This document shows, piece by piece, positions 2-63,347 of a stretch of DNA of 64,000 nt. The position numbers and the translations under genes are program-made. Source of the DNA: an uncultured virus (IMG/VR IMGVR_UViG_3300032307_000957) (Duplodnaviria; Heunggongvirae; Uroviricota; Caudoviricetes); IMG/VR virus record IMGVR_UViG_3300032307_000957. One strand, given 5' to 3'. The first letter of the stretch is position 1. The number at the start of each line of letters is the position of its first letter. Under the pieces are notes generated by a model. The model was not told where the DNA came from and ran no database searches. It saw nothing but the letters and a program-made list of their open reading frames with translations.

Positions 2-553
2 AATATTCAATTATTTGATAGGTTCGATTGGAGTCATATTTCGGCAGAACAAAAATTATCTAAAAATTTTATTGAAAAACATTCAGATAAAATTGATTGG
101 TATAGAGTTTGTCAACGTCAAAAACTATCAGAATCATTTATAGAGAAGCATTCAGATAAAGTTTTTTGGTGCCAAATTTCTTGGTCACGAAAATTATCTT
201 TAAAATTTATAGAAAAACATTCAGATAAAGTTGATTGGGATGGAATTTTTTCTAATCAAAAATTACCAGAAAAGTTTATAGAAAAATTAATAGAAAAAGA
301 TATCGATTATTTTGATGAATGTATTTGGGGTTTGATTTCTCAATATCAAACTTTATCTGAAGAGTTTATAGAAAAACATTCAGATAAAATTGATTGGTGT
401 AATATTTCAGATTATCAAAAATTATCTGAAGAATTTATAAAAAAACATATAAATAAAATTGATATAGATTATTTAATGCAAAACAAAAATCTTTCTAAAA
501 AGTTAAAAAATCAAATCAAAAAAGAAATTAATTTATTGAAAGAAATAATATGA
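2..553 (+). CDS. Trp-repeat protein with KEII tail, 5' end outside window
   Basis: Frame open from position 2; QKLSEKFIEKHSDKxDW repeats; ends LLKEII. Confidence 0.85.
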   Translation, partial: NIQLFDRFDWSHISAEQKLSKNFIEKHSDKIDWYRVCQRQKLSESFIEKHSDKVFWCQISWSRKLSLKFIEKHSDKVDWDGIFSNQKLPEKFIEKLIEKDIDYFDECIWGLISQYQTLSEEFIEKHSDKIDWCNISDYQKLSEEFIKKHINKIDIDYLMQNKNLSKKLKNQIKKEINLLKEII

Positions 554-933
554 AAAAACATAATTTAGATTTAGAAAAAAATGAATACTCGGAAGAAGAA
601 TTAGAAAATAATATTAATTTATTTGATGAATGGGATTGGTTTTCTATTTCTAGATTTCAAAAGTTATCTGAAAAAATTATTGAAAAATATGCGGATAGAG
701 TTCATTGGCATTATATTTCTGGATTTCAAAAATTATCAGAAAAATTTATAGATAAATATTCAGATAAAATTAATTGGTTTTATATTTCTAAATCTCAAAA
801 ATTATCAGAACGCTTTATAAAAAAATATATAGATAAAATTGATATTGATTGGTTAATGGAAAACAAAAATCTTTCTAAAAGATTAAAGAATAAAATTAAA
901 AAAGAAATTAATTTATTGAAAGAAATTATATGA
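550..933 (+). CDS. Trp-repeat protein (KEII tail)
   Basis: HNLDL..YSEEELE N-terminus, W/ISxxQKLSE repeats, LLKEII. Confidence 0.85.
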   Translation: MKKHNLDLEKNEYSEEELENNINLFDEWDWFSISRFQKLSEKIIEKYADRVHWHYISGFQKLSEKFIDKYSDKINWFYISKSQKLSERFIKKYIDKIDIDWLMENKNLSKRLKNKIKKEINLLKEII

Positions 934-1314
934 AAAAACATAATTTAAATCTAATTAATAAAAAACATTCTGAAAGAGTATTGGAAAATAATATTGAATT
1001 GTTTAGCCAAACAGAATGGAATTGGGTTTCTATTTATCAGGTTTTATCTGAAGAATTCATAGAAAAACATTTAAACAAACTTGATTTGTTTTATGTTTCT
1101 GCATTTCAAAAATTATCAGAAAAATTTATTGAAAAGCATTCAGATAAACTTAATTGGGATAATATTTCTAAATTTCAAAAATTATCAGAACAATTTATAA
1201 AAAAACATATAAATAAAATTAATATTGAAGTTTTAATGATAAATGAAAAAAATATCTAAAAAAGTTAAAAATAAAATCAAAAAAGAAATTAATTTATTGA
1301 AAGAAATTATATGA
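930..1314 (+). pseudogene. Trp-repeat gene, frameshifted near 3' end
   Basis: Extra A in A7 run 1246-1252; tail KKEINLLKEII-TGA continues in another frame to 1314. Confidence 0.7.
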
Positions 1315-1766
1315 AAAATCATAAACTAGATTTAATTACTAAAAAGCATTCAGAAAAAACATTAGAAAAATATATAGAATACTTTAATTATGAAGATTGG
1401 ATATATATTTCTTCTGATCAAAAATTATCTGAAGAATTTATAGAAAAATATTCACATAAAATTGATTGGTATTGGATTTCTAAACGTAAGAATTTATCAG
1501 AAAAATTCATAGAAAAACATTCAGATAAAGTTATTTGGGGTTATATCTCTTATTCTCAAAAATTATCAGAACAATTTATAGAAAAATATTCAGATAAAAT
1601 TGATTGGTATTGGATTTCTCGGGCTCAAAAATTATCGGAAAAATTTATAAAAAAACATATTAATAAAATAAATATTGACTGTTTGTTAATGGAAAACGAA
1701 AATATTTCTGATAAATTAAAAAACAAAATAAATCAAGAAATAAAATCATTGACAGAAATAATTTGA
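1311..1766 (+). CDS. Trp-repeat protein (KEII tail)
   Basis: Same repeat; ends SLTEII. Confidence 0.85.
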   Translation: MKNHKLDLITKKHSEKTLEKYIEYFNYEDWIYISSDQKLSEEFIEKYSHKIDWYWISKRKNLSEKFIEKHSDKVIWGYISYSQKLSEQFIEKYSDKIDWYWISRAQKLSEKFIKKHINKINIDCLLMENENISDKLKNKINQEIKSLTEII

Positions 1767-1859
1767 AAAATAAACTTGACACACTGGGCATCTACTGATA
1801 TATACCCAGATGACAAAATCTCCAGGAGGAGATGGTCAATTAACCACGGAGAGTGATAT

Positions 1860-2885
1860 ATGGAAAATAAAAATAAAAAAATCGGTGTATTCATTGGAAG
1901 ATTTCAACCCATTCACAACGGACATCTTTCTGTAATAAAAACAATATTAGAAAATGTTGATAATCTAATTATAGTTCTTGGTTCTGACGCTACAGCTAAA
2001 ACTGTAAAAAATCCATGGAACTCCAAAGAAAGAGAAGACATGATTCGTTCATGTTTATCTAAAATTGATAATAAACATGTTCATTTTATACAAGTAAAAG
2101 ATTATCTTTATAATGATAACCTTTGGATTACTGAACTTCAATCAAAAATATCTTTAATTGATGATTCTGAAGATGCAGAAATTACCCTTTATGGACATGA
2201 TAAAGATAAATCAACTTTCTATCTTTCAATGTTTCCAAAATGGAACTTTATCGAAACAGGCTCCAAAGGATCAATTGACGCAACAAAAATCCGAGAGTTT
2301 TATTTTCATAAAGATAAAATTTCCCTTAAAAACTTTCTTCCAGAACCAGTTTGCAAAAAGCTTTTCGAAGAAATGGATACCGAAATTTATAATCAACTTT
2401 ATGATGAGTTTCATCATATTATAGATTATAAATCAAAATGGTCAGCTTCACCTTTCCCACCAACCTTTGTTACCGTAGATGCAGTTGTAATAAAGTCCGG
2501 CCATGTTTTGGTTGTGCGTAGAAAGGGAGAACTTGGAAAAGGTTTACTGGCTTTACCAGGTGGGTTCATAAATAAAGATGAATTTATTGAAGATGCTTGT
2601 CTTAGAGAGTTAAAAGAAGAAACAAGAATAAATCTTCCAAAAGATGAACTTAAAAAAAGAATTGTTGATAAAAATGTCTTTGATCATCCAAATAGATCAT
2701 TAAGAGGAAGAACAATAACACACGCTTATTGTATAAATCTTGGATTTGGAGAGTTGCCAAGAGTCAAAGGATCGGATGATGCTGAAAAAGCTTTTTGGAT
2801 GTCTCTTAGGGACGTTCAAAGAAATGAGGAAATGTTCTTTGAAGACCATTACCACATAATTACTCATTTTTGTGCGAAATACTAA
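1860..2885 (+). CDS. nadM: Bifunctional NMN adenylyltransferase / NUDIX hydrolase
   Basis: GRFQPIHNGH motif; NUDIX box PGGF..DE..EDACLRELKEET; DDA and FEDH motifs. Confidence 0.95.
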   Translation: MENKNKKIGVFIGRFQPIHNGHLSVIKTILENVDNLIIVLGSDATAKTVKNPWNSKEREDMIRSCLSKIDNKHVHFIQVKDYLYNDNLWITELQSKISLIDDSEDAEITLYGHDKDKSTFYLSMFPKWNFIETGSKGSIDATKIREFYFHKDKISLKNFLPEPVCKKLFEEMDTEIYNQLYDEFHHIIDYKSKWSASPFPPTFVTVDAVVIKSGHVLVVRRKGELGKGLLALPGGFINKDEFIEDACLRELKEETRINLPKDELKKRIVDKNVFDHPNRSLRGRTITHAYCINLGFGELPRVKGSDDAEKAFWMSLRDVQRNEEMFFEDHYHIITHFCAKY

Positions 2886-2934
2886 TCTAAAATAGTTGGA
2901 GAAACTAAAAAGATAATAATTCAAGGAGAATTGT

Positions 2935-4358: not shown

Positions 4359-5171
4359 GTGCTTTCAGAGACTCAAGTAAAAGAAATCATTGATAAATAT
4401 CAAAATAAACAATCTCAAAAATCAATAGCTAAAGAATATGGCCTTGATAAAGGCACTATAAAAAGATTATTATTAAAAAATAATATAAAAATAAGAACTT
4501 TATCAGAAGCAAGCAGAAAATATTCTTATAATGATAATATATTTGAAACAATAGATTCTCATGAAAAAGCTTATTGGTTAGGTTTCATTGCGGCAGATGG
4601 TTGTATTATAAATAATAGATTGGATATAGGTTTATCAATTAAAGATTACAATCATTTGGTTAAGTTTAAAGAGTTTGTCGAATCAAATGCACCCATAAGA
4701 ACCTATAAAGTTAAAAGCTATGATTGCTGTGAGTTTACAATTAATTCAAGAAAAATAATCAATGATTTATTTAATCTAAATATAACACCAAACAAATCTT
4801 TAAATTTAAAACCTCCAGATATAAGTGAAGAATTTTATTTTTCATTTATACTTGGTTTATTTGGTGGTGATGGAGGGTTCTGCGTTAACAATCAAAATAC
4901 ATTATCTTTATATTTTTGCGGAACATTAGAAATAAATAAGTTTATAGTTAATTTTCTTGATAAGAAGCTAAATATAAAAATAAACCTAAGAGAAGATAAA
5001 AGGCATAATAACCATTATCGTTTTTCAATTTCTAATAGAAAGAATATAATTAAAATAGCAGAAAGTATGTATTGTAATTTAAATATATTCTTGGAGAGAA
5101 AAAACAATATTTATAAGAATTATTTTATAATGAATCCAATGGAAAACTATAGAAAAAGAAAACGTTTTTAG
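4359..5171 (+). CDS. Free-standing LAGLIDADG homing endonuclease with N-terminal HTH
   Basis: YWLGFIAADGCI and FILGLFGGDGGF motifs. Confidence 0.85.
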   Translation: MLSETQVKEIIDKYQNKQSQKSIAKEYGLDKGTIKRLLLKNNIKIRTLSEASRKYSYNDNIFETIDSHEKAYWLGFIAADGCIINNRLDIGLSIKDYNHLVKFKEFVESNAPIRTYKVKSYDCCEFTINSRKIINDLFNLNITPNKSLNLKPPDISEEFYFSFILGLFGGDGGFCVNNQNTLSLYFCGTLEINKFIVNFLDKKLNIKINLREDKRHNNHYRFSISNRKNIIKIAESMYCNLNIFLERKNNIYKNYFIMNPMENYRKRKRF

Positions 5172-11485: not shown

Positions 11486-12109
11486 ATGTCAAATCTATTT
11501 AAGCATCCAAAATATATAAAACCAGAAAATAAACAAATGAAGGTTGCAGATGCCGTTGAGCATTTCAAAAAGGCATATACAAAATTTATGGGGGTTGAGC
11601 CAACAAAGATTGCTCTTTGCATGATTGCCTCTCAATCGATTTTAGAGACAGGTTGGTTCAAAGCAGGACTGTACTGCTACAACTTCGGCAACACAAAATG
11701 CAACCCCAACAAACTTGAAGATGGAGAGTATTTCACAATGTTTCGTTGCTCCGAAGTTCTTAATGGAAAGGAAGTGTTCTTTGATCCTCCTCACTTTCAA
11801 ACAATCTTTCAAGCCTTCAAGTCACCAGAGGATGGGGCAAGGCATCATATTAAATTCTTGGCAACCAGAGAAAGATACAGGGAAGCTTGGTCAAAAATTA
11901 TAAATCATAAACCTGAAGAATATATTTTAGAACTAAGTAAAGCCGGATATTTCACGGCAAATTATAATTTATATAATAGGGTTTTCTTATCTATATATAA
12001 AAAACTGTTACCAACAATAGATCAACCGGATGAAATTTTCGATGAAAAAGAAGCAGAAAATAATTTACGTTTAGTTTCGGTTTCGATTAATAAAAACTTA
12101 AAAATCTAA
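11486..12109 (+). CDS. GH73/FlgJ-like glucosaminidase
   Basis: SQSILETGW, YNFGN.K, FQAFKS, AGYFTA. Confidence 0.75.
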   Translation: MSNLFKHPKYIKPENKQMKVADAVEHFKKAYTKFMGVEPTKIALCMIASQSILETGWFKAGLYCYNFGNTKCNPNKLEDGEYFTMFRCSEVLNGKEVFFDPPHFQTIFQAFKSPEDGARHHIKFLATRERYREAWSKIINHKPEEYILELSKAGYFTANYNLYNRVFLSIYKKLLPTIDQPDEIFDEKEAENNLRLVSVSINKNLKI

Positions 12110-12721
12110 AAAGTAATCTTTTTTAAACGAACAAGTTTCTCTTGGTGAACAATTATATATTGTACATATTTTAATGGCATCTTCTTTTGTTATACATCCA
12201 GGATTGAAAGTCATTGATGGAAACATGAAAGAAATATCATAAATATGATCTAACCCAATGAAATGACCAAGCTCATGAAGGGTTGTTTTATAAAGATCAG
12301 CAGTTTCATTTTTGAAGAAAACTATGTCTTGTTTTGATTTCGACCAATTATTATAAGCAACCCAATCATTTTTACCAATTAACATTTCTTTTGAAAAGTG
12401 ATACATATCTTTTCTATCAATGTTCCATATAAAATTGATTCCTTGATCATTTTTTATAATATATTTAAATTGACCTGGTTTATTTTGTTTTGTAAAAATA
12501 ACAAAAGACAATTTACCATTAGAAGAATATTCTATGGTTTTAATTGCTGCAACGATATATTGTTCTTGATATTCACTAAAGTCTTTATCTATATAAATAG
12601 ACAAAGGTGAAATAATTTTTGGTTTATTTAGTTGGTATGGTAATTTTACTTCTTTTTTATAGCAAGAATTTCCAAGGAGTAAAACGGTAATTATTATGAG
12701 AATCAACTTAAATAAGCTCAT
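12098..12721 (-). CDS. Matrixin-like zinc metallopeptidase, putative lipoprotein
   Basis: HELGHFIGLDH plus Met-turn SFMFP; signal peptide ending LGNSC. Confidence 0.8.
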   Translation of the reverse strand: MSLFKLILIIITVLLLGNSCYKKEVKLPYQLNKPKIISPLSIYIDKDFSEYQEQYIVAAIKTIEYSSNGKLSFVIFTKQNKPGQFKYIIKNDQGINFIWNIDRKDMYHFSKEMLIGKNDWVAYNNWSKSKQDIVFFKNETADLYKTTLHELGHFIGLDHIYDISFMFPSMTFNPGCITKEDAIKICTIYNCSPRETCSFKKDYFLDF

Positions 12722-12751: not shown

Positions 12752-13243
12752 TTATGTTATTATTTGTGACATTATTGAATTTCCTATATAATCATTTTCC
12801 TCTAAAATATTTATAATGGATAAATATTCTTCATATAAATATTTTTTTGTATTGGATAATTTTTTAATTATAGTGTATTTTTCTTTCCAAAAACTAAATA
12901 AGTATCTTATTTCTTCTTCAGTTAAGCTGTTATATATTTTGAAATAATAATCTTTATTTTTATATTTTATTTTTATTGATTTTTGCGGGTCAAAATCATA
13001 ATATGGGTAAGCTGGTTTAATAAAAATATTTGGATTAACATAATCTTCAAAACTTAAAAAACTTCTTTTAACGGGATTTTTTCCATTAATAAATTCAATA
13101 TTATCACAAAAACCAAAAAGACTTCCTTCATTATCTTCTTTTAATTTTGTTAAAATTGATTTTTTAATATCAATATCTTCATTTATTTCAACAAAAGAAA
13201 CTTTTGTTGTTTTTTGCGTCCATTTTTGGAAAAGTGCGTACAT
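12752..13243 (-). CDS. Hypothetical protein (tail variant MSQIIT)
   Basis: ORF in array. Confidence 0.65.
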   Translation of the reverse strand: MYALFQKWTQKTTKVSFVEINEDIDIKKSILTKLKEDNEGSLFGFCDNIEFINGKNPVKRSFLSFEDYVNPNIFIKPAYPYYDFDPQKSIKIKYKNKDYYFKIYNSLTEEEIRYLFSFWKEKYTIIKKLSNTKKYLYEEYLSIINILEENDYIGNSIMSQIIT

Positions 13244-13545
13244 TATATTATTTCCTTTAAGGTTTTTATTTCTTCTTTAGTTTTTTTTGAAATATCTTCA
13301 TTACATACTAATGAAAATATGTTTATTTTATTTATATTTTTTTTAATAAATTCTTCTGATAATTTTTGAGACAAAGAAATATTGATCCAATCAACTTTAT
13401 ATGAATATTTTTCTATAAATTCTTCTGATAGATTTTGGTAAGAAGAAATCCATCGCCAATCCCATTGGTCAAATAAATTAATATTATTTTCCAATTCTTT
13501 TTCCGAATATTTTTTACACATTAAATGCAAATTGTGCTTAGTCAT
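13243..13545 (-). CDS. Trp-repeat protein (KEII tail)
   Basis: Repeat motif; TLKEII. Confidence 0.85.
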   Translation of the reverse strand: MTKHNLHLMCKKYSEKELENNINLFDQWDWRWISSYQNLSEEFIEKYSYKVDWINISLSQKLSEEFIKKNINKINIFSLVCNEDISKKTKEEIKTLKEII

Positions 13546-14126
13546 ATAATTTCCTTTAAAGTTTCAATTTCTTTTTTAATTTTTTCTTTTAAATTTTCTG
13601 AAATATTTTTATTTTGCATTAAACAATCAATATTAATTTTATTAAAATATTTCATTATAAATTTTTCTGAAAGATTTTGATATCTAGAAATGAGATGCCA
13701 ATTAAGTTGATTGGAGTGTTTTTCTATAAACTTTTCTGATAATTTTTTATTACAAATAACAAAAGGAATATCCAATTTATTTAAATATTTTTCTATAAAT
13801 TTTTCAGATAAATTTTGATGCTTTGAAATCCAACCCCAATGAAGTTTATCTGAATGCTTCTCTATAAAATTTTCAGATAAATTTTGATATTGAGAAATAT
13901 AATACCAACTAATTTTATCTTGGTGTTTTTCAATAAATGATTCCGATAATTTTTGACTCCTTGAAATGTAGGCCCAATCAATTTTATCTAGATATTTCTC
14001 TATAAATGACTCTGATAATTTTTGATATGCAGAAATTAAAATCCAATCTTTTGAATCAAATAAATTAATATTTTTTTCTAATGTTTTCTCTGAATATTTT
14101 TTAGCAACCAGATCAATTTTATTCAT
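13542..14126 (-). CDS. Trp-repeat protein (KEII tail)
   Basis: About 6 repeats; TLKEII. Confidence 0.85.
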   Translation of the reverse strand: MNKIDLVAKKYSEKTLEKNINLFDSKDWILISAYQKLSESFIEKYLDKIDWAYISRSQKLSESFIEKHQDKISWYYISQYQNLSENFIEKHSDKLHWGWISKHQNLSEKFIEKYLNKLDIPFVICNKKLSEKFIEKHSNQLNWHLISRYQNLSEKFIMKYFNKINIDCLMQNKNISENLKEKIKKEIETLKEII

Positions 14127-14512
14127 ATAATTTCTTTCAATAAATCAATTTCTTTTTTAATTTCCTCAAAAAATGATCTTGAAATATATGGGTTATAGTT
14201 CATATTTTGAATTTCGATTTTTCTTATGTTTTTCTTTATAAAAGATTTTGATAAGTCTTGAGATTCGCTAATAATTTCCCAACAAACTACATCTGAATAT
14301 TTCTCTATAAATGATTCAGATAAAACCTGATAACCAGATATCGCATCCCAATCTAACTTATCTTGATATTTTTCCATGAATGATTCCGATAGGTCTTGAT
14401 AATAACAAATTTTCGACCAATCCTCTGTATTGAATAAATTAATACTTTTTTCAAGATCTTCTTCTTGATATTTTTTACTTTCTAAAAAGAAGTTATGTAT
14501 TATCATATTCAT
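14123..14512 (-). CDS. Trp-repeat protein (KEII tail)
   Basis: Repeat motif; LLKEII. Confidence 0.85.
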   Translation of the reverse strand: MNMIIHNFFLESKKYQEEDLEKSINLFNTEDWSKICYYQDLSESFMEKYQDKLDWDAISGYQVLSESFIEKYSDVVCWEIISESQDLSKSFIKKNIRKIEIQNMNYNPYISRSFFEEIKKEIDLLKEII

Positions 14513-49647: not shown

Positions 49648-49721
49648 GGGCCTCTAACTCAATTGGTCAGAGTATTCCGCTCATAACGGAAAGGTTCTCG
49701 GTTCGAGCCCGAGGGGGCCCA
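49648..49721 (+). tRNA. tRNA-Ile2(CAU)
   Basis: GGGCCTC/GGGGCCC-A; TTCCG-CTCATAA-CGGAA; directly upstream of tilS. Confidence 0.9.
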
Positions 49722-49760
49722 CATTAATTAAATTTAAAACTTATAAACATTAATTTTATT

Positions 49761-50465
49761 ATGTCAAAAACAAAAAGTTCCCACCCAAAATCATTGAGAA
49801 AGACGGTTTCCGACAACCTTAAGAAAGCAAATGTTAAAGGTAAACATTTGCTTATTGGAGTTTCCGGAGGTTCGGATTCCATGGCTTTATTGCATGTTTT
49901 GTCGGGTTTAAGGGAGAGTCTAGGGTTTAGCTTGTCGGCCGTTGGAGTGCATCATGGTTTGCGGCCGGAAGCTCAATTAGAGCTTGACATAGCGTCAAAG
50001 CTGGCCGAGGAACGTTCCGTTGATTGGTATCAAAAAAACATCAAATTGGAACCCGGTGGTAACATTCAAGAGAGAGCAAGGGAAGCCAGATACTCTGCAA
50101 TTAGAGAATTGCAAGAAGAAATCAAAGCAGACTATATTGTAATGGCCCACCATATGGAGGACAGAGCTGAAACAATCTTAATGAGAATCATTAAGGGTTC
50201 TGTTTATCAAAATATTGAGAATGTTATGCCTCTTTTAACTGACCATGGTGTTTTAAGACCAATGATTACAGCTTATAAAAGAGATGTAGTGCTTCATATT
50301 GAGAGGAAACAAGTTCCTTATATGGATGATCCAAGTAACTTTTTAACCGAGAAGTATTTCAGAGTAAAAGTTCGTCAGGAATTGATTCCTTATCTTAAGG
50401 ATATTAATCCAAACATTATTGATGCAATGTGTAAACTTTCCGATTCTCTATCTAATATAAAGTAA
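49761..50465 (+). CDS. tilS: tRNA(Ile)-lysidine synthetase, catalytic domain only
   Basis: VSGGSDSMAL, VHHGLR, AREARY, AHHMEDRAET, RP, DDPSN. Confidence 0.93.
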   Translation: MSKTKSSHPKSLRKTVSDNLKKANVKGKHLLIGVSGGSDSMALLHVLSGLRESLGFSLSAVGVHHGLRPEAQLELDIASKLAEERSVDWYQKNIKLEPGGNIQERAREARYSAIRELQEEIKADYIVMAHHMEDRAETILMRIIKGSVYQNIENVMPLLTDHGVLRPMITAYKRDVVLHIERKQVPYMDDPSNFLTEKYFRVKVRQELIPYLKDINPNIIDAMCKLSDSLSNIK

Positions 50466-50467
50466 TT

Positions 50468-51096
50468 ATGAATAAGGTTATTGATGATAAGCATTTAAGT
50501 ATGGTAAATAAGATCATTGAAGCGAGGAAATCAATTGAAGGATTTGCTTTAGGTGATTTTGTTGAGTTTAAAAATACAACGAGAAGAATTTCTAATATTA
50601 TGTCTGGAAGGGTTCAGACTTCGGATTTGAATGATGGTTCTTACCATATTTTTAGAAGTGGGTATGCTTCATTTTCCGGTGGTTTATATTCTTCATTAGA
50701 AAATGAAAAGTTGGAATTAACGAAAGAAATTACATTTGGTTCTTTTTGGATTTTCTATCATGGAAATGTAGAGGCTCATAACGGAATTGATATTTTGGTT
50801 CCTTGTAAAGTTTGGAAAGTAAACGCTGAAGCTCATTGTTTTAAGTATATTTGGGAGTAAATATGATTAAATTTAAAAAATTTACAATTGAAGATGAAAC
50901 TTTTTATCAATTAGACGTTGATGAAAACATTTCATTTCAAATATATAAAGAGGATTCTTGTCATTTTGCCGCAAGAATTGTTGGAGAAGTGTTTTTCACA
51001 AGCCATAGCCTTGAAGAAACGGAAGGTTTAGTTTTAAATTTTCTTAGGAATATAGCTAAAATTGTTAACGAAAAGGATAATGAAAATGAAAATTGA
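50468..51096 (+). other. Two hypothetical genes (50468-50860, 50863-51096)
   Basis: ORFs in co-directional run. Confidence 0.65.
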
Positions 51097-51619
51097 TTGG
51101 TCAAAATCCAAAGAGATTATTGGAGAAGAAGAGCAGCTTGCTTGTATAAAAAGGGATATTCGTAACATATATAATATTGTATATATGGACAATCCTTCTG
51201 AGAAAGTGCAGCTTCTTGTTGTTAGTTTAGATTCTACTAATATTCGTTCTATTCATAACCCTTCTGAGAAAGTTCAACTTCTTTCTATTAGTGTGGATTC
51301 TAATAACATTCGTTATATTCACAACGCAACTGAGAATGTAAAGTTAGCTGCCGTAAGTAAATCTGGAGATTCAATTAAATGGATTTATAACCCTTCGGAG
51401 GAAGTACAGCTTGCCGCTGTAAAGAATCACGGTTCTGCAATTGAATATATTCATAATCCTTCTGAAGAAGTTATGAAGGCTGCTCTTTTACAAGACCCTA
51501 ATTGCATTCAGTATTTTAAACAATCTTGGAAGAAAAATATTAAATCTAAGAAGAAAATGACTGTAGAAGAGATTGAAAAAGAATTAGGATATAAAGTAGA
51601 AATTGTTTCTGATAAATGA
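51080..51619 (+). CDS. NPSEEV-repeat protein (DUF4116-like)
   Basis: Repeats; tail MTVEEIEKELGYKVEIVSDK. Confidence 0.8.
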   Translation: MKMKIDWSKSKEIIGEEEQLACIKRDIRNIYNIVYMDNPSEKVQLLVVSLDSTNIRSIHNPSEKVQLLSISVDSNNIRYIHNATENVKLAAVSKSGDSIKWIYNPSEEVQLAAVKNHGSAIEYIHNPSEEVMKAALLQDPNCIQYFKQSWKKNIKSKKKMTVEEIEKELGYKVEIVSDK

Positions 51620-51655: not shown

Positions 51656-52246
51656 ATGAAAATGGAAATTGATTGGTCAACAATAAAAGAGTTTGTTGGA
51701 GAAGAAGAACAGCTTAAAGCTATTGAGAAAGATTGGGATAATATCCAATTTATGGATAATCCTTCGGAAAAAGTACAACTTGCAGCCGTTGAAAGAAGTA
51801 GTCATGCAATTGAACTTATTCATAATCCATATGAGAGTGTGCAACTTGTTGCCGCGGAAACGGACGGATCGGTAATTCAATACATTCATAATCCTTCGGA
51901 TAGAGTTAAGCTTGCTGCATTAAAGCACAATGGAAATGCAATTCAATGGATTCATAACCCTTCAAAGGAAATGAAACTTGCCGCAGTAAATAATAACGGT
52001 GGTGCAATTAGATATATTCATAATCCTTCAGAGGAAGTACAGCTTGCGGCAGTAAAGAATAATAGTAATGCAATTAAATTTATTCATAATCCTTCGGAAG
52101 AAGTTATGAACGCAGCAATTTTGAAAGGATCTTATTGTATTTCTCGCTTCAAGAAATTTTGGAGAAAGAATACCAAGAAGAAAATGACCGTTGAGGAAAT
52201 TGAAAAGGAACTTGGATATAAAGTAGAAATTATATCCGATAAGTAA
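51656..52246 (+). CDS. NPSEEV-repeat protein (DUF4116-like)
   Basis: Repeats; tail MTVEEIEKELGYKVEIISDK. Confidence 0.8.
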   Translation: MKMEIDWSTIKEFVGEEEQLKAIEKDWDNIQFMDNPSEKVQLAAVERSSHAIELIHNPYESVQLVAAETDGSVIQYIHNPSDRVKLAALKHNGNAIQWIHNPSKEMKLAAVNNNGGAIRYIHNPSEEVQLAAVKNNSNAIKFIHNPSEEVMNAAILKGSYCISRFKKFWRKNTKKKMTVEEIEKELGYKVEIISDK

Positions 52247-52678: not shown

Positions 52679-53035
52679 TCTAGATTTTTCTATGAATAAA
52701 TATATTGAAAAAGAATTAGAAGATAATATTATTTTTTTGATGAAAGTGATTGGAAGAAAATTTCTTGGTCACAAAAATTATCAGAAGAATTTATCGAGAA
52801 ACATTCAGATAAAGTTTATTGGCTATGGATTTCTTCATACCAAGAATTGTCTGAAGAATTTATTGAGAAACATTCAGATAAAGTTTATTGGGTAAATATT
52901 TCTGGACGTCAAAAATTATCAGAAGAATTTATTGAGAAACATAAAGATAAAATAAAAATTGATCTTTTAATTCATAATAAAAATATTTCCAATAAAACCA
53001 AAGAAGAAATAATAACTTTGATGGAAATTATATGA
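52668..53035 (+). pseudogene. Trp-repeat gene, frameshifted
   Basis: MNHNLDF... frame restored by adding one T to T7 at 52732-52738; ends LMEII. Confidence 0.75.
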
Positions 53036-53403
53036 CACACAATTTAGATTTAATGAATAATAAATATTCAGAAAAAGAATTAGAAGAAAATGTTAATTCA
53101 TTTAATATTAATGATTGGTATTTCATTTCTTGTTGTCAAAAATTATCCGAAGAATTTATAGAAAAACACTTAGATCAAGTTTATTGGCATTTGATATCTG
53201 AGTATCAAACATTATCTGAAGAATTTATTGAGAAACATTTTGATAAATTGCATAGAGATGCAATTTCTATATTTCAGAAATTATCAGAAGAATTTATAAG
53301 AAAACATGCAAAAAAACTTAATATTCACTGGATATTAGGTGGAAATGAAAGTGTATCTGAAGAGTTCAAACAAGAAATAAGAACCTTGAAAGAAATCATA
53401 TGA
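53032..53403 (+). CDS. Trp-repeat protein (KEII tail)
   Basis: Repeat motif. Confidence 0.85.
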   Translation: MTHNLDLMNNKYSEKELEENVNSFNINDWYFISCCQKLSEEFIEKHLDQVYWHLISEYQTLSEEFIEKHFDKLHRDAISIFQKLSEEFIRKHAKKLNIHWILGGNESVSEEFKQEIRTLKEII

Positions 53404-53780
53404 AACACAATTTAGATTTAAGTCGTATAAAATATTCCCAAGAAGAGTTGGAAGAAAAAAATCATTTATTTACTCAAATTGAGTGGCATTACATTTCAAT
53501 TTATCAAAGTTTAACAGAAAATTTTATTGAAAAACATTCAGATAAATTAATTTGGGATGATATTTCTGTTTACCAACAGTTATCAGATGAATTTATAGAA
53601 AAATACATAGTTAAAGTTAACTGGTATTATATTTGTTTATTTCAATCTTTGTCTGAAGAATTTATAAGAAAACATATAAATAAAATGGATGTTGGTTGGT
53701 TAATTCATAATATGAAAATATCTCAAGAATTAAGATTAAAAATTAAAAAAGAATTTAATTTATTAAAAGAAATTATATGA
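53400..53780 (+). CDS. Trp-repeat protein (KEII tail)
   Basis: Repeat motif. Confidence 0.85.
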   Translation: MKHNLDLSRIKYSQEELEEKNHLFTQIEWHYISIYQSLTENFIEKHSDKLIWDDISVYQQLSDEFIEKYIVKVNWYYICLFQSLSEEFIRKHINKMDVGWLIHNMKISQELRLKIKKEFNLLKEII

Positions 53781-56363: not shown

Positions 56364-56621
56364 ATGTTAATAGATATCATTCAACAAGGACACAGAACAA
56401 TAACGCTTCTCGGTAGTAATGATATGTATGTAAATTACTATTGTTGGCAAAATGTAAAAAAAGGAAATTCAAGTAACTGGAAACATAGATCTGGCGAAAG
56501 ATGGCCGGTCGTTTTGTCTTATGAATGGGATTATGATTTAATCTTAATACCTTCATCTTTCCAATTTAAGGTTGCCGAAGAAATGTTTCAAGAATATATG
56601 TTGTTGAAAGAAATTATTTAA
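56364..56621 (+). CDS. Hypothetical protein (KEII tail)
   Basis: Ends LLKEII-TAA. Confidence 0.7.
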   Translation: MLIDIIQQGHRTITLLGSNDMYVNYYCWQNVKKGNSSNWKHRSGERWPVVLSYEWDYDLILIPSSFQFKVAEEMFQEYMLLKEII

Positions 56622-56622: not shown

Positions 56623-56886
56623 ATGACAAAAGTTACATTTATAAACAAAATGTTTATTGTCGGAGATTTTGAAGGAATTGATAATAATAGACATAAAGTT
56701 TTTAAACACTACCTTTTAAGGGATTTGTTTAAAGGATATATTAGACCGTTTTCAATATTTCCTTTAATTACATTAGTTAATATTGACTACATAGTATGTA
56801 TTGATCCAAAATATACATACAAAGAATGCAACCATATGATAGAAGAAGTTATGAGTGAATTGCTCCTTCTTAAGGAAATAATTTAA
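56623..56886 (+). CDS. Hypothetical protein (KEII tail)
   Basis: Ends LLKEII-TAA. Confidence 0.7.
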   Translation: MTKVTFINKMFIVGDFEGIDNNRHKVFKHYLLRDLFKGYIRPFSIFPLITLVNIDYIVCIDPKYTYKECNHMIEEVMSELLLLKEII

Positions 56887-57191
56887 TGTCAAAAAACATA
56901 ACACTAAAAACAAACATAGAGATAATTCTAAATACAAAAACTAAAGAGTTTATTGATTTTGGAACGCATGGAGAATATAAAACTTATGAAAAAGAGGTTT
57001 GTGTAACTATTGAAGATTTAAAGTTTGATAGATCCAAATATAATGTTTCTGATATTTCATCTGTTAAGATGCCCTTTGTAACATTTGAGAGTTGCATTCT
57101 TCCATTTGTTCAAAATATACCTTACCGTGTTAATAGTGACAATATTTGGTATGGTGATATGGCTAAGTTTATTGTTGATAATTTTCTATAA
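56886..57191 (+). CDS. Hypothetical protein
   Basis: ORF. Confidence 0.65.
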   Translation: MSKNITLKTNIEIILNTKTKEFIDFGTHGEYKTYEKEVCVTIEDLKFDRSKYNVSDISSVKMPFVTFESCILPFVQNIPYRVNSDNIWYGDMAKFIVDNFL

Positions 57192-57202
57192 AGGAGTTAA
57201 TT

Positions 57203-57553
57203 ATGTATAAGTATATTGTTTTATTTGCAATGATGATGATGGGTTGCTCTTCTACCCAGGTTAATCCTGAAACCCCAAAACCTGATAATGAAAAGGAAGT
57301 TGTGACAAAGGAAGAGGATAGTACATTTAAGAATTATGTTTATGATCGTTTGGTTTCAGTAAAGCTTAAGATTGAAGAGCTTCTGGATGATCCAAAGCTG
57401 TTCAGTAAGGAAAGGTTTTCTTCTATTAGTGATAGAATTAAGCTTTTGGATTCTCTGGAAGAATACAGGAATGTTCTGGGTGACAAGATTATGTTGCTTG
57501 TTGCCGAAATCAAATTGAAGTTTGAAGAGTTAAAGGTTAGGTATAATTCATGA
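57203..57553 (+). CDS. Putative lipoprotein
   Basis: Signal ending MMGC; AAGGAG RBS. Confidence 0.7.
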   Translation: MYKYIVLFAMMMMGCSSTQVNPETPKPDNEKEVVTKEEDSTFKNYVYDRLVSVKLKIEELLDDPKLFSKERFSSISDRIKLLDSLEEYRNVLGDKIMLLVAEIKLKFEELKVRYNS

Positions 57554-58128
57554 AAACAAAGAAAAAAAATAGATTCAATAAAGGAACAAAACTTACATAT
57601 AAAGATGGTTCAAAATGGCTAATTAAACAAGAATGCTTAAGATTAATATCCGAAGATATATCTAAGTCATTATTGGATCAATTTAATAGTGCTATTTGTA
57701 AACCTAATGAAAAATTATTTCAAGATTTTATAAATGAATATAATTTTGTACCGTGGTTCATCTTTAATGTAAAAATTAGCCAACAATTCATTCAAAAAAA
57801 CATATCAATTTTTGATAAAAAATGTTGGGATGCCATCTCTTTATATCAGGAAATGTCAATGTCTTTCATAAATAACAATATAAGTAAATTAAATATTGAA
57901 TATTTAATGTATAATCATAATCTATCTAAAAAAGATAAGATGAAAATATATAGTACATTCTTTAAACAAAAAAATAAAAAGTTCAACAATACACCAAAAA
58001 CAATTAAATTCAAGAATAAATTCTTTAGAGTAAATGACAGAATTGTTTCAATAAATTATTTCTGCAATAGAATTGCTCAATGGAACTATTTTTCTAACAA
58101 TTTTAATTTCAGTGAATTATACTTCTAA
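57550..58128 (+). CDS. Divergent Trp-repeat-like protein
   Basis: WDAISLYQEMSMSFI..NISKLNI; no KEII tail. Confidence 0.6.
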   Translation: MKTKKKNRFNKGTKLTYKDGSKWLIKQECLRLISEDISKSLLDQFNSAICKPNEKLFQDFINEYNFVPWFIFNVKISQQFIQKNISIFDKKCWDAISLYQEMSMSFINNNISKLNIEYLMYNHNLSKKDKMKIYSTFFKQKNKKFNNTPKTIKFKNKFFRVNDRIVSINYFCNRIAQWNYFSNNFNFSELYF

Positions 58129-58158
58129 ATGTAATTTTTTTTAAAAAGGAATAAAATT

Positions 58159-60453
58159 ATGAAATTCAACAAGAATCTTACAAATCACATTGCAAATCTT
58201 GGCTCAATGCAATTATTTATGGATGCCGAACCCACAAAGTCTCCGGATGTTGTTTTTGGTTCAAATTATGGGGAGAGGGAATCTTTCCTTATGGTATCCA
58301 TGGAAGTTATGAAAGATGAGGATGATAAGGAATTTGGCATAAAATGTTATGTTGAAACGGCAAATGAAAAGAAGGAAGAGGTTTTGCCATTGCATTCAAG
58401 CGCGAAGTCTGTTAAGGATTGGTTCGAAAACAATATCATGGACTTTGGTTTTATTCGTTCTTGGGTAAAGGTTGAAAAGGTTTAATTATGACGCTTTTAA
58501 ATATTGATTGGGAAAAGAATCCAACTAGTAGATTTACAAAAATTGAAGTTTATGAACACATAAAGGAAATTCTACCTTCTTATAACATTGATCCTAAACA
58601 CTTAGATTCTCATAACTTTATTTGCGGATATAGATTTTTTCCAGCGGGGCCTAATAGGCACTATAAAAAGAAAATAACTGTAGCTTTGGCTAATTACGAA
58701 TTTCATTGTACTGATTGTAATTTTTCCATTCATCTAACTGTAACAGATATAAACAATAAATCTTCTAATCTTGAAATTGAAGAAGTTGAGTATGACAAAA
58801 AAGAAATCTCAATCTATGCAAAAACAATACATAGCACTATGTTTTCTTTATCCTCTTTAGATTCTAATCTAAAAACCAATGAAGAGTATTATCAAAGTGA
58901 TATAAACAACTTGAAGAAACATCCATCAATAAAAAACTTCCCAGGTTTTCAAATTCCTAATCCCCAAATTGATTATGTGGTATTGGTAAAAAAACAAATT
59001 AAAGAAATGAATTTAGAATTCAATTCATTAAGAATGACATGTGCAGAAGCTAAAAAATTAAATTTAACAAAAACCTTTTTTCAAAAATAAATAAAATGAA
59101 GCAAGAACACATATATGTTGTTTACAACAAAAACAATGAAATAATTTTCATTCACTTTTCAAAAAGGAATAGGTTTGATTCATTTTTAATCCAAGCAATG
59201 GATAACTTTTCCGAAAAAACAAAAGGTGTTGGGTGGTTGAGTTTTTGTCCAAAACAAGAAATTGATGAAAACTCTGCCCACACAATGCTTGGTAGAAAAA
59301 TCCAAATAAAAAACAATACAGCTTATGTCACGTAGAATACCAAATTCTTTGATTGCAATAGCAAAAGAAGAAAGAAGATTGAAAAAGGGTCATTTATCAA
59401 AAGATGAAGATCCAAGTAAAATAGATTTTTACTTGGAATGTCTTCAAAGATTGAAGGTTTGGTACTTGGAAAGGTTAAAGAAAGATGACTAGAGATTACA
59501 ATAACGCAGAAACGATCAATAAAATAAAAAAACAATTAGAATTAGATTTGTATGATTTTTCAGTAACCAAATCAAAAAATTCAATAAATGATTGCTTAAT
59601 ATTCGATGCAAACAAAGAAAGCCAGTTTGGTTTTTTACATGAAACAATATCTTTTTCAATTCAAATTTACAAAAACGATAGAAATGCAGAAATAAGAGAA
59701 ATAACAAATTTAAAATATAAAGTATTATTTATTGACAAAGAAATATTTAATTCAAATGAAAACTATACTTTGCCATATGATTCGTATTCTTTATACGACA
59801 CACTCGAAGTATATAGAAAAACATTCAGGCAAATGGTTCATTCAACATTAAACTTTTTAGACTTAAAGGTAAGTATATCATGAAAACAATTGAAATGACC
59901 GAAGAAGAATACCAAGATCTCGTTGATGATTATTGCGGAGTTTGCTTATCATGCGAAGAAATTGCAGATAATGTAGAGCCGGATGCCACAAATTACAAAT
60001 GCGATTCTTGCGGAAAGAATACTGTATTTGGTATTGAAGAAGCTCTTATTATGGGAAATATCGATATTACTTAATCAGTATAAATATATGACAAAAGGAA
60101 CGGATAAAGATACCAATTTAGAAATTTTAGTTAATGCATTTTATAAATCTGCCAATAATATTGACGATATAAAATCCAGAATAATGGAATCATTTGATTT
60201 TTTCAATGAAATTAATGGAAAACAATATTATGTACCTCTATTTAACCTTAGAGAGTCTTTAAGTGATGTTTCCAGGGAAGATTTTGATGAAGCAATAAAT
60301 GATCTTAGAAGAGATTGGATATTAACTTTAAGCCCAGCAGAAGGTTTGCATGAAAAAATACCAGAACACATATTAAATGCTGGTATTATAGAACAATCAA
60401 ATAATCTTGTTTATGCAGCAAGAAGAGCAACTTATGATGATGAAGAGGATTGA
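58159..60453 (+). other. Hypothetical genes (58159-58485, 58488-59090, 59096-59335, 59325-59492, 59485-59883, 59880-60074 Zn ribbon, 60088-60453)
   Basis: Co-directional ORFs; 59880 has CLSC..VEPDA..YKCDSCG. Confidence 0.6.
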
Positions 60454-60768: not shown

Positions 60769-61065
60769 ATGCACAGTCTAGACCTTGTACGAACACAATA
60801 TTCAGAAGAAGAGTTAGAAGATAACGTTCATTTTTTTGTTAAAAATGATTGGTGGTTTATTTGTTTTTGCCAAGATTTATCAGAGAATTTTATAGAAAAA
60901 CATGCGGATAAGGTAAATTGGATTTACATTTCAGAAAAGCAATCTTTATCAGAAGGGTTTATAAAAAGACATATTGAAAAAATTAATATTGAAATTTTAA
61001 TGTATAATGATAGAATTTCTGAAGAAATAAAAAAAGAAATAAAAACATTAAAAGAAATTATATGA
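60769..61065 (+). CDS. Trp-repeat protein (KEII tail)
   Basis: Repeat motif. Confidence 0.85.
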   Translation: MHSLDLVRTQYSEEELEDNVHFFVKNDWWFICFCQDLSENFIEKHADKVNWIYISEKQSLSEGFIKRHIEKINIEILMYNDRISEEIKKEIKTLKEII

Positions 61066-61502
61066 ACCAACACAATTTAGAATTAATTAAAAAACAATAT
61101 TCCGAAAAAGAATTAGAGCAAAATATCAATTTATTTGATGATCGAGATTGGCACTCAATTTCAATTTTCCAAAAACTATCAGAAAAATTTATTGATAAAT
61201 ATTCAGGTAGGATTAATTGGGATTGGGTTGCTTCAGAACAAGAATTATCAGAACTTTTTATAAAAAAACATGCGGATAAGGTTAATTGGTATCACGTTTC
61301 AATTTACCAAAAGCTATCAGAAGAATTTATTGAAAAATATTCCGATAAGCTTGATTGGTTATATATTTCTGAATTTCAAAAATTATCTGAAAAATTTATA
61401 AAAAAACATATAGATAAAATTAACATTAATTTTTTAATGATTAATAATAAAATTTCAAAAAAAATAAAAAAAGAAATTAAATCACTAAAGGAAATTATAT
61501 GA
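61062..61502 (+). CDS. Trp-repeat protein (KEII tail)
   Basis: Repeat motif. Confidence 0.85.
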   Translation: MNQHNLELIKKQYSEKELEQNINLFDDRDWHSISIFQKLSEKFIDKYSGRINWDWVASEQELSELFIKKHADKVNWYHVSIYQKLSEEFIEKYSDKLDWLYISEFQKLSEKFIKKHIDKININFLMINNKISKKIKKEIKSLKEII

Positions 61503-62032: not shown

Positions 62033-62284
62033 ATGAAATTACGTTATGCAATTGTTTATGACGGTCATGTACCAGATGTATTGAAAGAATTCGACCCGAA
62101 TTTTTCAATAAAACATTTAGCTTTTAGAAATGTCAAAAGATCTCACTTTGACACCAAAGAAGAGGCTGAAAGTTTTCTTAATATTATAAAAGAAAATCTT
62201 GAGAATAAACTTGGCATGAAAAACCCCCATATAATGCAAATCAGTTGTTATGATCATGGCGAATCAATCGGAACATGCTTTTAA
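62033..62284 (+). CDS. Hypothetical protein
   Basis: ORF. Confidence 0.6.
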   Translation: MKLRYAIVYDGHVPDVLKEFDPNFSIKHLAFRNVKRSHFDTKEEAESFLNIIKENLENKLGMKNPHIMQISCYDHGESIGTCF

Positions 62285-62293
62285 GGAGTTTTT

Positions 62294-62731
62294 ATGAAGT
62301 GTTTATGCTGCCACATTGATAATTTAAAAAAAGAAGATTTTCTTAAAGAAGAACAATATCTTGTTGGTAGATATACTGTAATATTTACCTTTAATTACAA
62401 AGATAGTTATATGTGCAAGGTTTGTGAATCATATAGCGTTAATTATAACGATTTAGAGCAAGTTGAAATTTTGGTTGCAAAATTCTTATTGGATAATGTG
62501 GCATTTTTTGACCCTAACGCATTTCGTTTTATTAGAAAGGCTGCTGGGTTTAGTGCAGAATTTTTGCAAGAAAAGCTTGGTCTTGAAACCAAAGACGCTA
62601 TTAAAAAGATTGAAAGACAAGAATCAATACCAGAAAACATATGGTTTGGTTTAGATTCATGCTTTGAAGAGTTCCTAAAGAAGAAAAACATAAAAACAAA
62701 TCTTATCAAACCTAAGCTTCTTACTGATTGA
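62294..62731 (+). CDS. MqsA-like zinc finger plus HTH protein
   Basis: MKCLCC...CKVCE...FRFIRKAAGFSAEFLQEKLG. Confidence 0.65.
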   Translation: MKCLCCHIDNLKKEDFLKEEQYLVGRYTVIFTFNYKDSYMCKVCESYSVNYNDLEQVEILVAKFLLDNVAFFDPNAFRFIRKAAGFSAEFLQEKLGLETKDAIKKIERQESIPENIWFGLDSCFEEFLKKKNIKTNLIKPKLLTD

Positions 62732-62737
62732 AATAAT

Positions 62738-63004
62738 ATGTTTTGTTCAGCACTTGTTTATTTTAATAATTTACATAGCATTTGTATACTAAGTCTTCCA
62801 AACAAAGCAGATGTAAAGTATACAGATATTAAATTCATTGATAAATATCAGTTTATAAATGAAACTTTCTGTTTCCCAGAGTATATATTTCACAGCATTA
62901 TATTTTCACCTATTATAACTCAAATATATAAAATAGAAGGCAAAACAAAAGAAGAGGTTTGGTTGAAAATTCAGGATTTTTTGGTTATTAAAGAAATAAT
63001 TTAA
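62738..63004 (+). CDS. Hypothetical protein (KEII tail)
   Basis: Ends VIKEII-TAA. Confidence 0.7.
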   Translation: MFCSALVYFNNLHSICILSLPNKADVKYTDIKFIDKYQFINETFCFPEYIFHSIIFSPIITQIYKIEGKTKEEVWLKIQDFLVIKEII

Positions 63005-63005
63005 T

Positions 63006-63347
63006 ATGTTTGATTTAAAAGAATACGAAGAAAATATAGTTAAATTAGAATACTTAAATAAGTATTTTATTTCTTTTAAAGACCATTGTTGCGAAATAAT
63101 GACATACATATTAAGCGAATTTTATGTGGACTATTTGTATATTACAATTGCTCAATTAGATCCACTTGTAATACATAAAAGTAAGTATATTATATTTAAT
63201 GTTCACGGTTCTGACTTGAAAAGTCTTTCTGGGACTCCTTATGAATATAATGGCGAAAACAAAGCATGTTTTCCTTATGATCTATTATTTGATGAAAATT
63301 GGAAAGAAACAGTAAAAAGAGATGCTTTAATTAAAAGCATAATATAG
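63006..63347 (+). CDS. Hypothetical protein (tail IKSII)
   Basis: ORF. Confidence 0.65.
   Translation: MFDLKEYEENIVKLEYLNKYFISFKDHCCEIMTYILSEFYVDYLYITIAQLDPLVIHKSKYIIFNVHGSDLKSLSGTPYEYNGENKACFPYDLLFDENWKETVKRDALIKSII

Follow-up and report, generated by a model that had tools for sequence, protein, structure and literature searches.

A recurrent C-terminal Glu/Asp-Ile-Ile tail on unrelated proteins of a large-phage clade as a candidate tag for a shared reader

The DNA analyzed here is a stretch of 64,000 nucleotides (nt) from an uncultured virus of the Caudoviricetes (IMG/VR record IMGVR_UViG_3300032307_000957), here named the window, in which about a third of the genes encode proteins that finish with the same short C-terminal tail, [E/D]-I-I. 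The window is AT-rich (23-37% G+C) and its gene content is that of a very large phage. Genes found by Pfam and profile scans include those for NadM/NUDIX, NAMPT, DHFR, thymidylate synthase, IF-1 and Hsp20, as well as an M78 peptidase, a PP-loop/TilS protein and a LAGLIDADG endonuclease; five or six tRNA genes and one group I intron are also present. Among deposited phages no close relative of the window was found, the best match being an uncultured 642-kb phage with 65% identity over 8% of a 7.7-kb query. The results presented here cover these 64 kb of the phage genome and 27% of a related genome, represented by the contig G001 (115,645 bp), whose completeness of 27% was rated by CheckV and corresponds to a genome of about 400 kb.

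Open reading frames (ORFs) were taken mechanically as the longest ATG, GTG or TTG frames in a greedy non-overlapping set, in which starts are uncertain and some ORFs are possibly spurious. The strict tail, [E/D]-I-I followed by the stop codon directly or after one further residue, was found on 50 of the 147 window ORFs of at least 60 amino acids (aa). Near-variant endings were found on nine more (SQIIT, RNII, KDIM, KGII, MEVI, KSII, NEVI, GDIL and, in DHFR, SSIIS), the last three of which are doubtful, and five tails lie in frames outside the greedy set (28770-29060, 1243-1314, 22702-22797, 23573-23704 and 26004-26219). These figures bear out the "about 60" tailed ORFs counted by hand in an earlier sequence-only reading of this DNA. 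In G001 46 of 173 ORFs are tailed, one of them being the native ..IIDDIIE end of a ClpP homologue, which is not to be counted. The window and G001 together have 96 tailed proteins among 320 ORFs, against 0.84 expected from composition, an excess on which the sequence-only reading had depended. Within proteins, [ED]II is as frequent as composition predicts (73 of 52,638 sites, 0.0014). The corresponding DNA word, GAWATWATATGA, is present in 27 copies in the window against 0.23 expected from shuffles, none of 100 shuffles reaching 27; in G001 it has 27 forward copies, with no reverse copy and no copy of the control.

After removal of the last 12 aa, BLAST clustering of the bodies of these proteins spread the 96 tails over 43 of the 247 clusters of the window and G001. 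Three body groups were recognized in the window: family A, with 21 members, 18 of them tailed by a loose pattern, and families B and C, in which all members are tailed (10/10 and 3/3). Besides these there are 26 tailed singletons, and the tailed orphans are all small (median 112 aa). Family A is the Trp-repeat family, and its alignment shows the repeats as tandem units of about 23 aa (W..IS..Q.LSE.FI); the three proteins tested all matched phrog_3532, with E values from 6e-29 to 9.5e-70.

The consensus was derived from the 79 exact tails among the 320 ORFs, all of which leave a free Ile-Ile-COOH terminus, with non-polar last residues like those of degrons. Counting from the C-terminus, position -9 is Glu in 55 of the 79, position -8 is hydrophobic in 96% and position -5 in 99% (Leu in 68), position -4 is variable but usually Lys (56), and position -3 is Glu (71) or Asp (8), followed by Ile at -2 and -1. 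Sixteen tails carry one extra residue, by which the motif is placed 3 nt farther from the ATG. The tail had been described as following an acidic amphipathic helix. The amphipathic part of this description stood, with a hydrophobic moment of the last 18 aa of 0.43 in tailed and 0.27 in untailed proteins (p 3e-15), while the acidic part applies only outside family A, the net charge of the same segment being +1.4 in family A and -1.4 in the remainder.

The tailed genes are arranged in runs on both strands, as had been noticed before. At the left end of the window, on the plus strand, two family A genes finish in LLKEII at ATGA overlaps, the first with its 5' end off the window (2-553) and the second coding for 127 aa (550-933). 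A relic tail frame (KKEINLLKEII, 1243-1314) lies behind a seemingly frameshifted family A gene (930-1259), and it is followed by a family A gene with the ending SLTEII, a TGA stop and no start codon at the stop (1311-1766).

The longest array occupies the minus strand from 12.7 to 29.7 kb. As the sequence-only reading had it, nearly all of its genes are tailed, the exceptions being thymidylate synthase (thyA, 15116-15973, PF00303, E 1e-79), an M78/IrrE-like zinc peptidase (21834-22298, PF06114, E 5.7e-15) and an ORF within the family B array (26964-27215), to which the frameshifted family A gene at 22787-22996 has to be added. An untailed matrixin-like zinc peptidase gene is found at the 3' end of the array (12098-12721, minus strand, PF00413, E 1.7e-6). 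The family A members of the array include the genes at 13243-13545 (TLKEII, with TAA in a TAATG junction) and 13542-14126 (194 aa, TLKEII, the phrog_3532 match with E 9.5e-70). Others end at ATGA overlaps, at 14123-14512 (LLKEII), 14509-14811 (ILKEII), 17220-17534 and 17831-18148 (both TLKEII), 24033-24434 (LLKEII) and 25460-25690 (DLIEII), and one ends in TAA (25092-25463, LLKEII). Two genes for Cys-rich bodies stop at TAA, one at 15973-16521 (MKDIIL) and the other, separated from the next gene by 40 nt, at 16562-16951 (IKDIIL).

Orphan bodies make up much of the same array. Those ending at ATGA overlaps were found at 14808-15116 (SLKEII), 16948-17223 (LKDIIS), 18127-18471 (CLMEII), 19333-19605 (SLHDII), 19828-20166 (LLVEII), 20139-20507 (LQEIIS), 20462-20725 (TISEII), 20722-21033 (LMKEII), 21030-21284 (LLMEII), 21281-21595 (TIKDII) and 21616-21837 (LRDIIE). 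Orphans with a TAA stop are located at 17547-17834 (LNDIIT), 18426-18707 (LICEII) and 19598-19831 (LKEIIG), and one with TAG at 23322-23576 (KLKEII). The ORF at 18704-19336 codes for 210 aa ending in LKEIIS, for which no homologue was found; it contains an out-of-frame relic tail (19042-19086) and is possibly a fused pair. Near-variants are encoded at 12752-13243 (MSQIIT), 22295-22660 (SLRNII, ATGA overlap) and 22993-23322 (LLKDIM), and a second relic frame (EEIKKLKEII, 22702-22797) lies behind the frameshifted gene mentioned above. In both frameshifted-looking family A loci (930-1314 and 22702-22996) the body stops early and the KEII tail continues in another frame, which could be decay or sequencing error. 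A 43-codon open frame ends in SLMEIIE (23573-23704).

Family C is encoded at 23677-24036 (TLREII) and 24766-25080 (LIEIIG), both at ATGA overlaps, and at 24431-24769, with the near-variant LFKGII. Family B fills the upstream part of the array, from its first gene at 29457-29741 (LLGEII, TAA) through 29057-29440 (LLKEII), 28770-29060 (LLLGEII, absent from the greedy set), 28471-28908 (SLMEII, with a TTG start that is probably too far upstream), 28178-28474 (TIMEII), 27870-28181 (TLIEII), 27529-27873 (LLQEII, the representative used for folding), 27212-27532 (LLKEII), 26632-26988 (near-variant LLMEVI) and 26303-26635 (LMEIIL) to 25687-26010 (MMDIIK). The gap at 26011-26302 holds a 71-codon open frame ending in VLIEII (26004-26219). 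On the plus strand of the right half, family A is represented at 44942-45268 (TLKEII, TAA), 52847-53035 (a fragment, TLMEII), 53032-53403 (TLKEII), 53400-53780 (LLKEII), 60769-61065 (TLKEII) and 61062-61502 (SLKEII), and orphans with TAA stops at 56364-56621 and 56623-56886 (both LLKEII) and at 62738-63004 (VIKEII), the last being followed by a near-variant (LIKSII, 63006-63347).

The distribution of the tail outside the window is narrow. A search of IMG/VR with family A gave 38 loci, of which only G001 and a second contig that overlaps its content (L020) have the tail, and the family A genes of G001 and the window are about 65-80% identical. The best 120 family A proteins of a large protein collection divide by length: of 25 short forms, not exceeding 160 aa, 24 are tailed, and of 95 long forms, most of them with PF24703, none is. 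Several contigs, the longest of 171,650 bp, contribute the tailed proteins, and this clade has therefore been seen repeatedly. None of 33 Trp-repeat ORFs in other viral loci is tailed. Outside the clade these proteins end instead in DUF7666, in RING fingers (Pfam E as low as 1e-11; two ORFs of locus L013, one of L029) or just past an N.N[IL]S.E.K helix. An entomopoxvirus protein of the tryptophan-repeat family carries an F-box, according to a passage in PMC7728225. A Trp-repeat ORF in a virus record of 18% G+C (L025, 9812-10684) begins with ..LPSEIIYIILKKL, which is F-box-like by eye, and no Pfam F-box was reported for it at E of 0.01 or below. Family B was found outside the window in eight proteins, near-identical relatives only, all with the tail or with the MEVI variant of the family.

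Two enzymes of G001 are also tailed. Its M78 peptidase (Pfam E 4.5e-16) ends in ..VDEII, while that of the window, a distant relative (38% identity over 52 residues), is untailed; the gene lies inside the tail array in both. A PolyA_pol-type nucleotidyltransferase of G001 ends in ..ILKEII, and none of the 66 full-length-like homologues among its best 150 representatives is tailed. In these enzymes the tail replaces the usual C-terminus of the family at about equal length. Since homologues of three body types outside the clade are untailed, the tail appears from these comparisons to be clade-specific and acquired. Ten records with a TerL 38-63% identical had no copy of the 12-mer tail motif, and in a sister phage (G005, 218 kb, TerL 45% identical) none of 52 ATGA overlaps is tailed and no common ending whatever was found. 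The same holds for the 44 ATGA overlaps of family-A-bearing loci of other lineages and for 68 overlaps in other viral and metagenome loci with a G+C fraction below 0.32, whose 1019 ORFs include a single one ending in [ED]II.

The tail and the start of the following gene frequently share nucleotides. The tail DNA can be written TTR AAR GAA ATW ATA TGA, so that the stop is overlapped by the next ATG, which is preceded by a stretch rich in A and G; the codons GAW ATW ATA TGA supply the A of that ATG, and the tail is thereby dual-coded. Among the strict tails of the window 36 of 50 are at ATGA overlaps, and among the exact tails of the window and related loci 55 of 76, with a further 4 at TAATG. 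The last codon is ATA in all 55 coupled tails, and the lineage encodes IF-1 (window), IF-3 and S21 (G001). This part of the evidence could be accommodated by a clade-specific initiation or coupling element, the DNA word given above, serving the downstream gene and perhaps read by phage initiation factors, with the peptide as a by-product of translation. Such an RNA signal is nevertheless very unlikely to account for the tail. The ATGA overlap is absent from 14 of the 50 window tails (including those at 16562, 17547, 56364 and 62738) and from 21 of the 76 exact tails, 6 of which have no ATG within 25 nt; the extra-residue forms displace the word by 3 nt; and where genes do not overlap, the spacers are variable. 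Conversely, 53 of the 111 ATGA-ending ORFs of the window and G001 lack an exact [ED]II, 9 of these 53 ending in -IIx. Shine-Dalgarno cores (AGGA, GGAG or GAGG, 5-17 nt before the downstream ATG) were found at 7 of 29 tail junctions, compared to 6 of 10 other coupled junctions.

Codon usage within the tail also argues against a signal that acts only as nucleic acid. The Ile codons at -2 (ATT 33, ATA 20, ATC 2, against 54/39/7% in the genome), the Glu codons at -3 (GAA 46, GAG 5, against 85/15%) and the Lys codons at -4 (AAA 32, AAG 6, against 80/20%) vary at their third positions with genome frequencies, and ATG never takes the place of ATH at -2. Because codon -4 follows genome usage, there is no bias to a stronger Shine-Dalgarno sequence (AAGGA), and AAG at this codon is not enriched in coupled tails (6/38) compared to uncoupled ones (4/16). 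In the 28 tails outside families A and B the information is concentrated at codon positions 1 and 2, and codon -4 is free (AAA, ATG, TGC, CAT, GTA, TCG, AGA, ACG, AAT or CAG). The 71 ATGA-ending ORFs with two hydrophobic last residues comprise 62 with II, 4 with IL, 4 with VI and 1 with IV, although TTA (Leu) or Phe would suit an AT-rich overlap equally well. The tail is as intact without an overlap (14 of 17 strict) as with one (36 of 41 strict).

On the strength of the control loci, the separability from overlaps, the codon usage, the Ile-Ile specificity, the lack of decay off overlaps and the scarcity of Shine-Dalgarno cores, we conclude that selection acts on the tail peptide and that the coupling signal shares its nucleotides; coupling itself neither requires nor explains the tail. 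The sequence-only reading had favored selection on the peptide, noting that the tail persists with TAA stops, with an extra residue and without the overlap, and had named conservation at the DNA level alone as the outcome that would speak against it; the former was confirmed and the latter was not seen. At the ATGA junctions of the window and G001 the overlap makes the second codon of the downstream gene begin with A, which produces a run of MK, MN, MT and MI N-termini; this is a DNA-level constraint and not a motif.

The repetitive junctions could alternatively be scars of cassette exchange, in which the junction is a recombination site, incoming small genes take over, in frame, the last codons of a displaced gene, and the resulting tail is tolerated. 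The junction together with a family A start (..GAAATWATATGAAAAAACATAATTT) recurs many times, several tailed genes of other bodies lie directly upstream of a family A gene, the relic tails and frameshifted copies are signs of turnover, and the replacement of the usual C-terminus in the G001 enzymes, at about the same length, would fit as well. However, consecutive genes without family A bodies (18.1-21.8 kb) and the family B array are tailed without a family A neighbor. In addition, homogenization of the junction DNA is contradicted by its differences at synonymous sites and at codon -4, and a neutral scar should decay where coupling is absent, yet 14 of 17 tails are strict there. This origin is therefore considered improbable. 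A 29-mer of the junction had no match in metagenomes; a 20-mer matched 117 unrelated metagenome loci with a single match each, which were used as controls only.

The bodies that bear the tail differ in fold. The AlphaFold2 model of family A (550-933, mean predicted local distance difference test, pLDDT, of 95.7) is an all-alpha solenoid of nine helices, whereas that of family B (27529-27873, pLDDT 88, predicted template modeling score 0.82) is a compact alpha/beta domain with six strands, and the two folds do not match each other. With these two distinct confident folds, the two enzymes of G001 and tail-masked profiles that join no families, the claim that the bodies are unrelated was upheld. 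A hidden Markov model (HMM) of family B, built with the last 10 aa left out, matched no further ORF, and one of its C-terminal module with the tail masked recovered only the 10 seeds above a maximum of 16 bits in shuffled sequences. These profiles do not prove that the orphan bodies share an ancestor, which may nonetheless be the case. Searches of the PDB with Foldseek gave no usable match (best E 1.2 for family B and 1.3 for family A), and neither did further fold searches (best Z 4.4 in VIA wide, best E 0.18 in BFVD, best feature score 0.75 in ESM Atlas). In PHROGs 46 of the 54 scanned proteins had no family, and all 8 matches were to phrog_3532. Pfam reported no domain on any tailed window protein, RING and F-box domains included.

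Each model closes with a long terminal helix of high confidence (residues 110-126 in family A and 97-113 in family B), whose last turn is the tail. The blocks before the last residues have pLDDT values of 97 and 94 in family A and 97 and 93 in family B, with no low-confidence linker, and only the last 4-7 residues fall, to 60-81. The sequence-only reading had proposed a docking tail and compared it with that of SspB; a flexible tail of the SspB type is not borne out by these predictions. They are instead compatible with a structural cap, in which the hydrophobic helix end packs on its own body and has no partner, the orphans being hyper-divergent paralogues of which the tail is the last recognizable part. 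The hydrophobic positions -12, -8, -5, -2 and -1 form one stripe on the helix, in keeping with the hydrophobic moment given above, family A relatives elsewhere already have the N.N[IL]S.E.K helix at the site of the tail, and the orphans are all small. Packing into a core, however, would tolerate L, V, F or M at the end of the helix, just as these are tolerated at positions -5 and -8, whereas the last two residues are Ile in 62 of the 71 cases described above, and helix stability does not call for an invariant acidic residue three from the C-terminus of a helix. A cap is also hard to reconcile with profiles that, once the tail is masked, link no families, or with an identical ending on folds as different as an alpha solenoid and an alpha/beta domain and on two enzymes, the M78 peptidase and the nucleotidyltransferase. 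We regard a cap as unlikely, but far from negligible. A complex predicted between family A and family B proteins, bearing on tail-tail binding, scored 0.01 against a mark of 0.32, which counts neither way.

The tail is thus far above chance, clade-specific, conserved as a peptide, present on unrelated folds and enzymes, and separable from the ATGA overlap. A strict Ile-Ile end and an invariant acidic residue on different folds point to one shared reader that acts in trans. The tail may accordingly be a genetically encoded C-terminal tag, hydrophobic(-5)-x-[E/D](-3)-I(-2)-I(-1)-COOH, read in trans by a putative shared reader, an interpretation for which and against which we find the balance about even. 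Under this proposal the tag, usually after Glu at -9 and a hydrophobic residue at -8, would form the last turn of a terminal amphipathic helix, and a narrow clade of phages of about 400 kb would have added it to about 30% of its ORFs, chiefly those of small orphan proteins that lie in long arrays of translationally coupled genes.

For the nature of the reader we prefer, tentatively and with more doubt than confidence, a proteolytic or remodeling machine, for which the tail would be a degron, or a tether by which a tagged protein, or the target bound to it, is passed to a Clp-type or AAA+ machine. The G001 contig encodes candidates for such a machine: a near-canonical ClpP (38304-38921; PRK00277 with 222 bits, below the cut-off of 249, and Pfam E 8.6e-58), a second, short ClpP-like protein (18133-18714), a PAN/Cdc48-like AAA ATPase, and a pair formed by an AAA protein and a DUF2201 (VWA-like) protein. 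Neither the window nor G001 was found to encode ClpX. Non-polar C-termini act as degradation signals, VWA metal sites grip acidic residues, and IrrE-type peptidases cut off C-terminal helices. ClpP and ClpS occur in some jumbo phages, as stated in a passage of a review (PMC7824862). The ClpP and AAA+ genes, together with the RING-bearing relatives of family A, may keep the idea of a protease adaptor or degron alive, without demonstrating it. The PAN/Cdc48-like AAA gene adjoins that for S21, and IF-3, peptide deformylase, trigger factor and DnaJ genes are also present (57176-58474, 58474-58728, 63847-64386, 64386-64895, 74429-75643 and 88870-89835, jointly); as annotated from sequence, this translation and proteostasis kit seems unusually full.

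A capsid-loading or localization reader is considered very unlikely, and a reader of some other kind is given an equally slight chance. Pfam reported no structural genes in the window, and no capsid or scaffold gene lies near the arrays. Three further candidates were rejected: mimicry of transfer-messenger RNA (tmRNA), as there is no tmRNA in the window or G001; the IxI motif of small heat-shock proteins, the window encoding Hsp20, as by eye the tail is E-I-I, usually with Lys at -4, and not I-x-I; and stop-codon recoding, which is unneeded with frames open under table 11. More speculatively, and with rather poor odds in our view, the clade could run an address system of its own, in which a five-residue tag on about a third of the genes, whatever their fold, is read by a machine that the phage encodes. 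The candidates in G001 would be ClpP with an AAA+ partner, or the AAA and VWA-like pair, with its metal site gripping the invariant acidic residue, and the task of such a machine would be the timed destruction, remodeling or delivery of the host-takeover proteins as a class, or of the host targets bound to them.

Several points weigh against a tag read in trans. The reader is putative, and its binding or turnover of tagged proteins is what we infer. The ClpP and AAA+ genes were seen only in G001, with none in the 64-kb window. In the models the tail is not on a flexible linker and ends a helix predicted as part of each fold, and a purely structural role is accordingly possible, at the low likelihood already assigned to a cap. 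For the 36 of 50 window tails that coincide with ATGA overlaps the RNA constraint is real. The ORF calls are purely mechanical, and paralogy inflates the counts: the family A cluster holds 47 of the 96 tails, and with many tails in families of paralogues part of the conservation is shared descent.

Some other features of the window deserve mention. A tRNA gene with a CAT anticodon, possibly an AUA decoder (49648-49722, plus strand), is located 38 nt upstream of a gene for a protein with a TilS (lysidine synthetase) N-domain (49761-50465, plus strand; TIGR02432, 145.6 bits, cut-off 93.6), and from its sequence the pair looks like an AUA-decoding module. ATA, the final codon of all ATGA-coupled tails (55/55), makes up 39% of the Ile codons. 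The group I intron (42464-42725; Rfam RF00028, 65 bits, full length) lies between the ORFs at 42121-42375 and 42859-43305, and the LAGLIDADG homing-endonuclease-like ORF (4359-5171, Pfam E 3.7e-7) between the NAMPT and DHFR genes. ARAGORN predicted a tRNA-Ser with an unusual ACT anticodon at 37492-37564, where Rfam is silent at the gathering score, and missed a tRNA at 36566-36640 that Rfam reports. Three DUF4116-repeat proteins (38362-38760, 51062-51619 and 51656-52246) have a common C-terminus of their own, ..KKMTVEEIEKELGYKVEI(V/I)SDK, which is a family-level tail distinct from the EII tag. The region at about 29900-33300 has a higher G+C content (35-37%), few ORFs, a point of divergent transcription and the minimum of the cumulative GC skew; an Rfam scan of it found no family, and its role could be that of an origin, terminus or control region.

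If a reader exists, the tail would give simultaneous access to about 50 orphan proteins in each genome, and would show how a huge phage manages its early proteome. The locus is also a clean case of dual coding, in which 12 nucleotides serve both a peptide motif and a stop-start overlap, and the two can be told apart by statistics. We know of no genome-wide, genetically encoded terminal tag in a phage, and in the literature no description of such a C-terminal tag was found.

Parts of this arrangement resemble known systems. Translationally coupled ATGA overlaps are familiar from the trp operon and the early gene clusters of T4, and the window is similar in that 36 of 50 tails end in ATA-TGA under the next ATG, in long and near-gapless arrays. 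It differs in that the peptide is absent from overlaps elsewhere (0/68, 0/44 and 0/52), that here 53 of 111 overlapping ends lack an exact [ED]II, and that the tail persists in uncoupled genes. Degrons and tethers of AAA+ proteases, such as the ssrA peptide (..LAA-COOH) and the ClpX-binding C-terminal peptide of SspB, are likewise short and non-polar, have a free carboxylate and mark many proteins, and ClpP and AAA+ proteins are encoded in G001. The tail of the window, in contrast, has another sequence, is encoded on about 30% of the ORFs rather than added by tmRNA or restricted to a single adaptor, and is predicted to end a packed helix, not a disordered tail or linker.

The ankyrin/PRANC proteins of poxviruses are viral repeat adaptors with a constant C-terminal module, and they, like the F-box Trp-repeat adaptors, share with the window the combination of a variable repeat body and a constant end; relatives of family A bear RING or DUF7666 at this place. 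The constant end of the window proteins, however, has 5-9 residues instead of a 40-residue domain and is also found on non-repeat proteins and enzymes, and to our knowledge bacteria are without an SCF or RING pathway. Cargo-loading signals include the C-terminal loading peptides of encapsulin cargo and the capsid-targeting sequence of T4, which is N-terminal and cleaved. These too are short terminal peptides that direct unrelated proteins to one site, but their consensus is another one, the T4 signal is at the opposite end and is removed, and the arrays of the window have no capsid or scaffold gene nearby. Degrons and loading peptides are the known examples from cells of short terminal tags by which many proteins are sent to a single machine.

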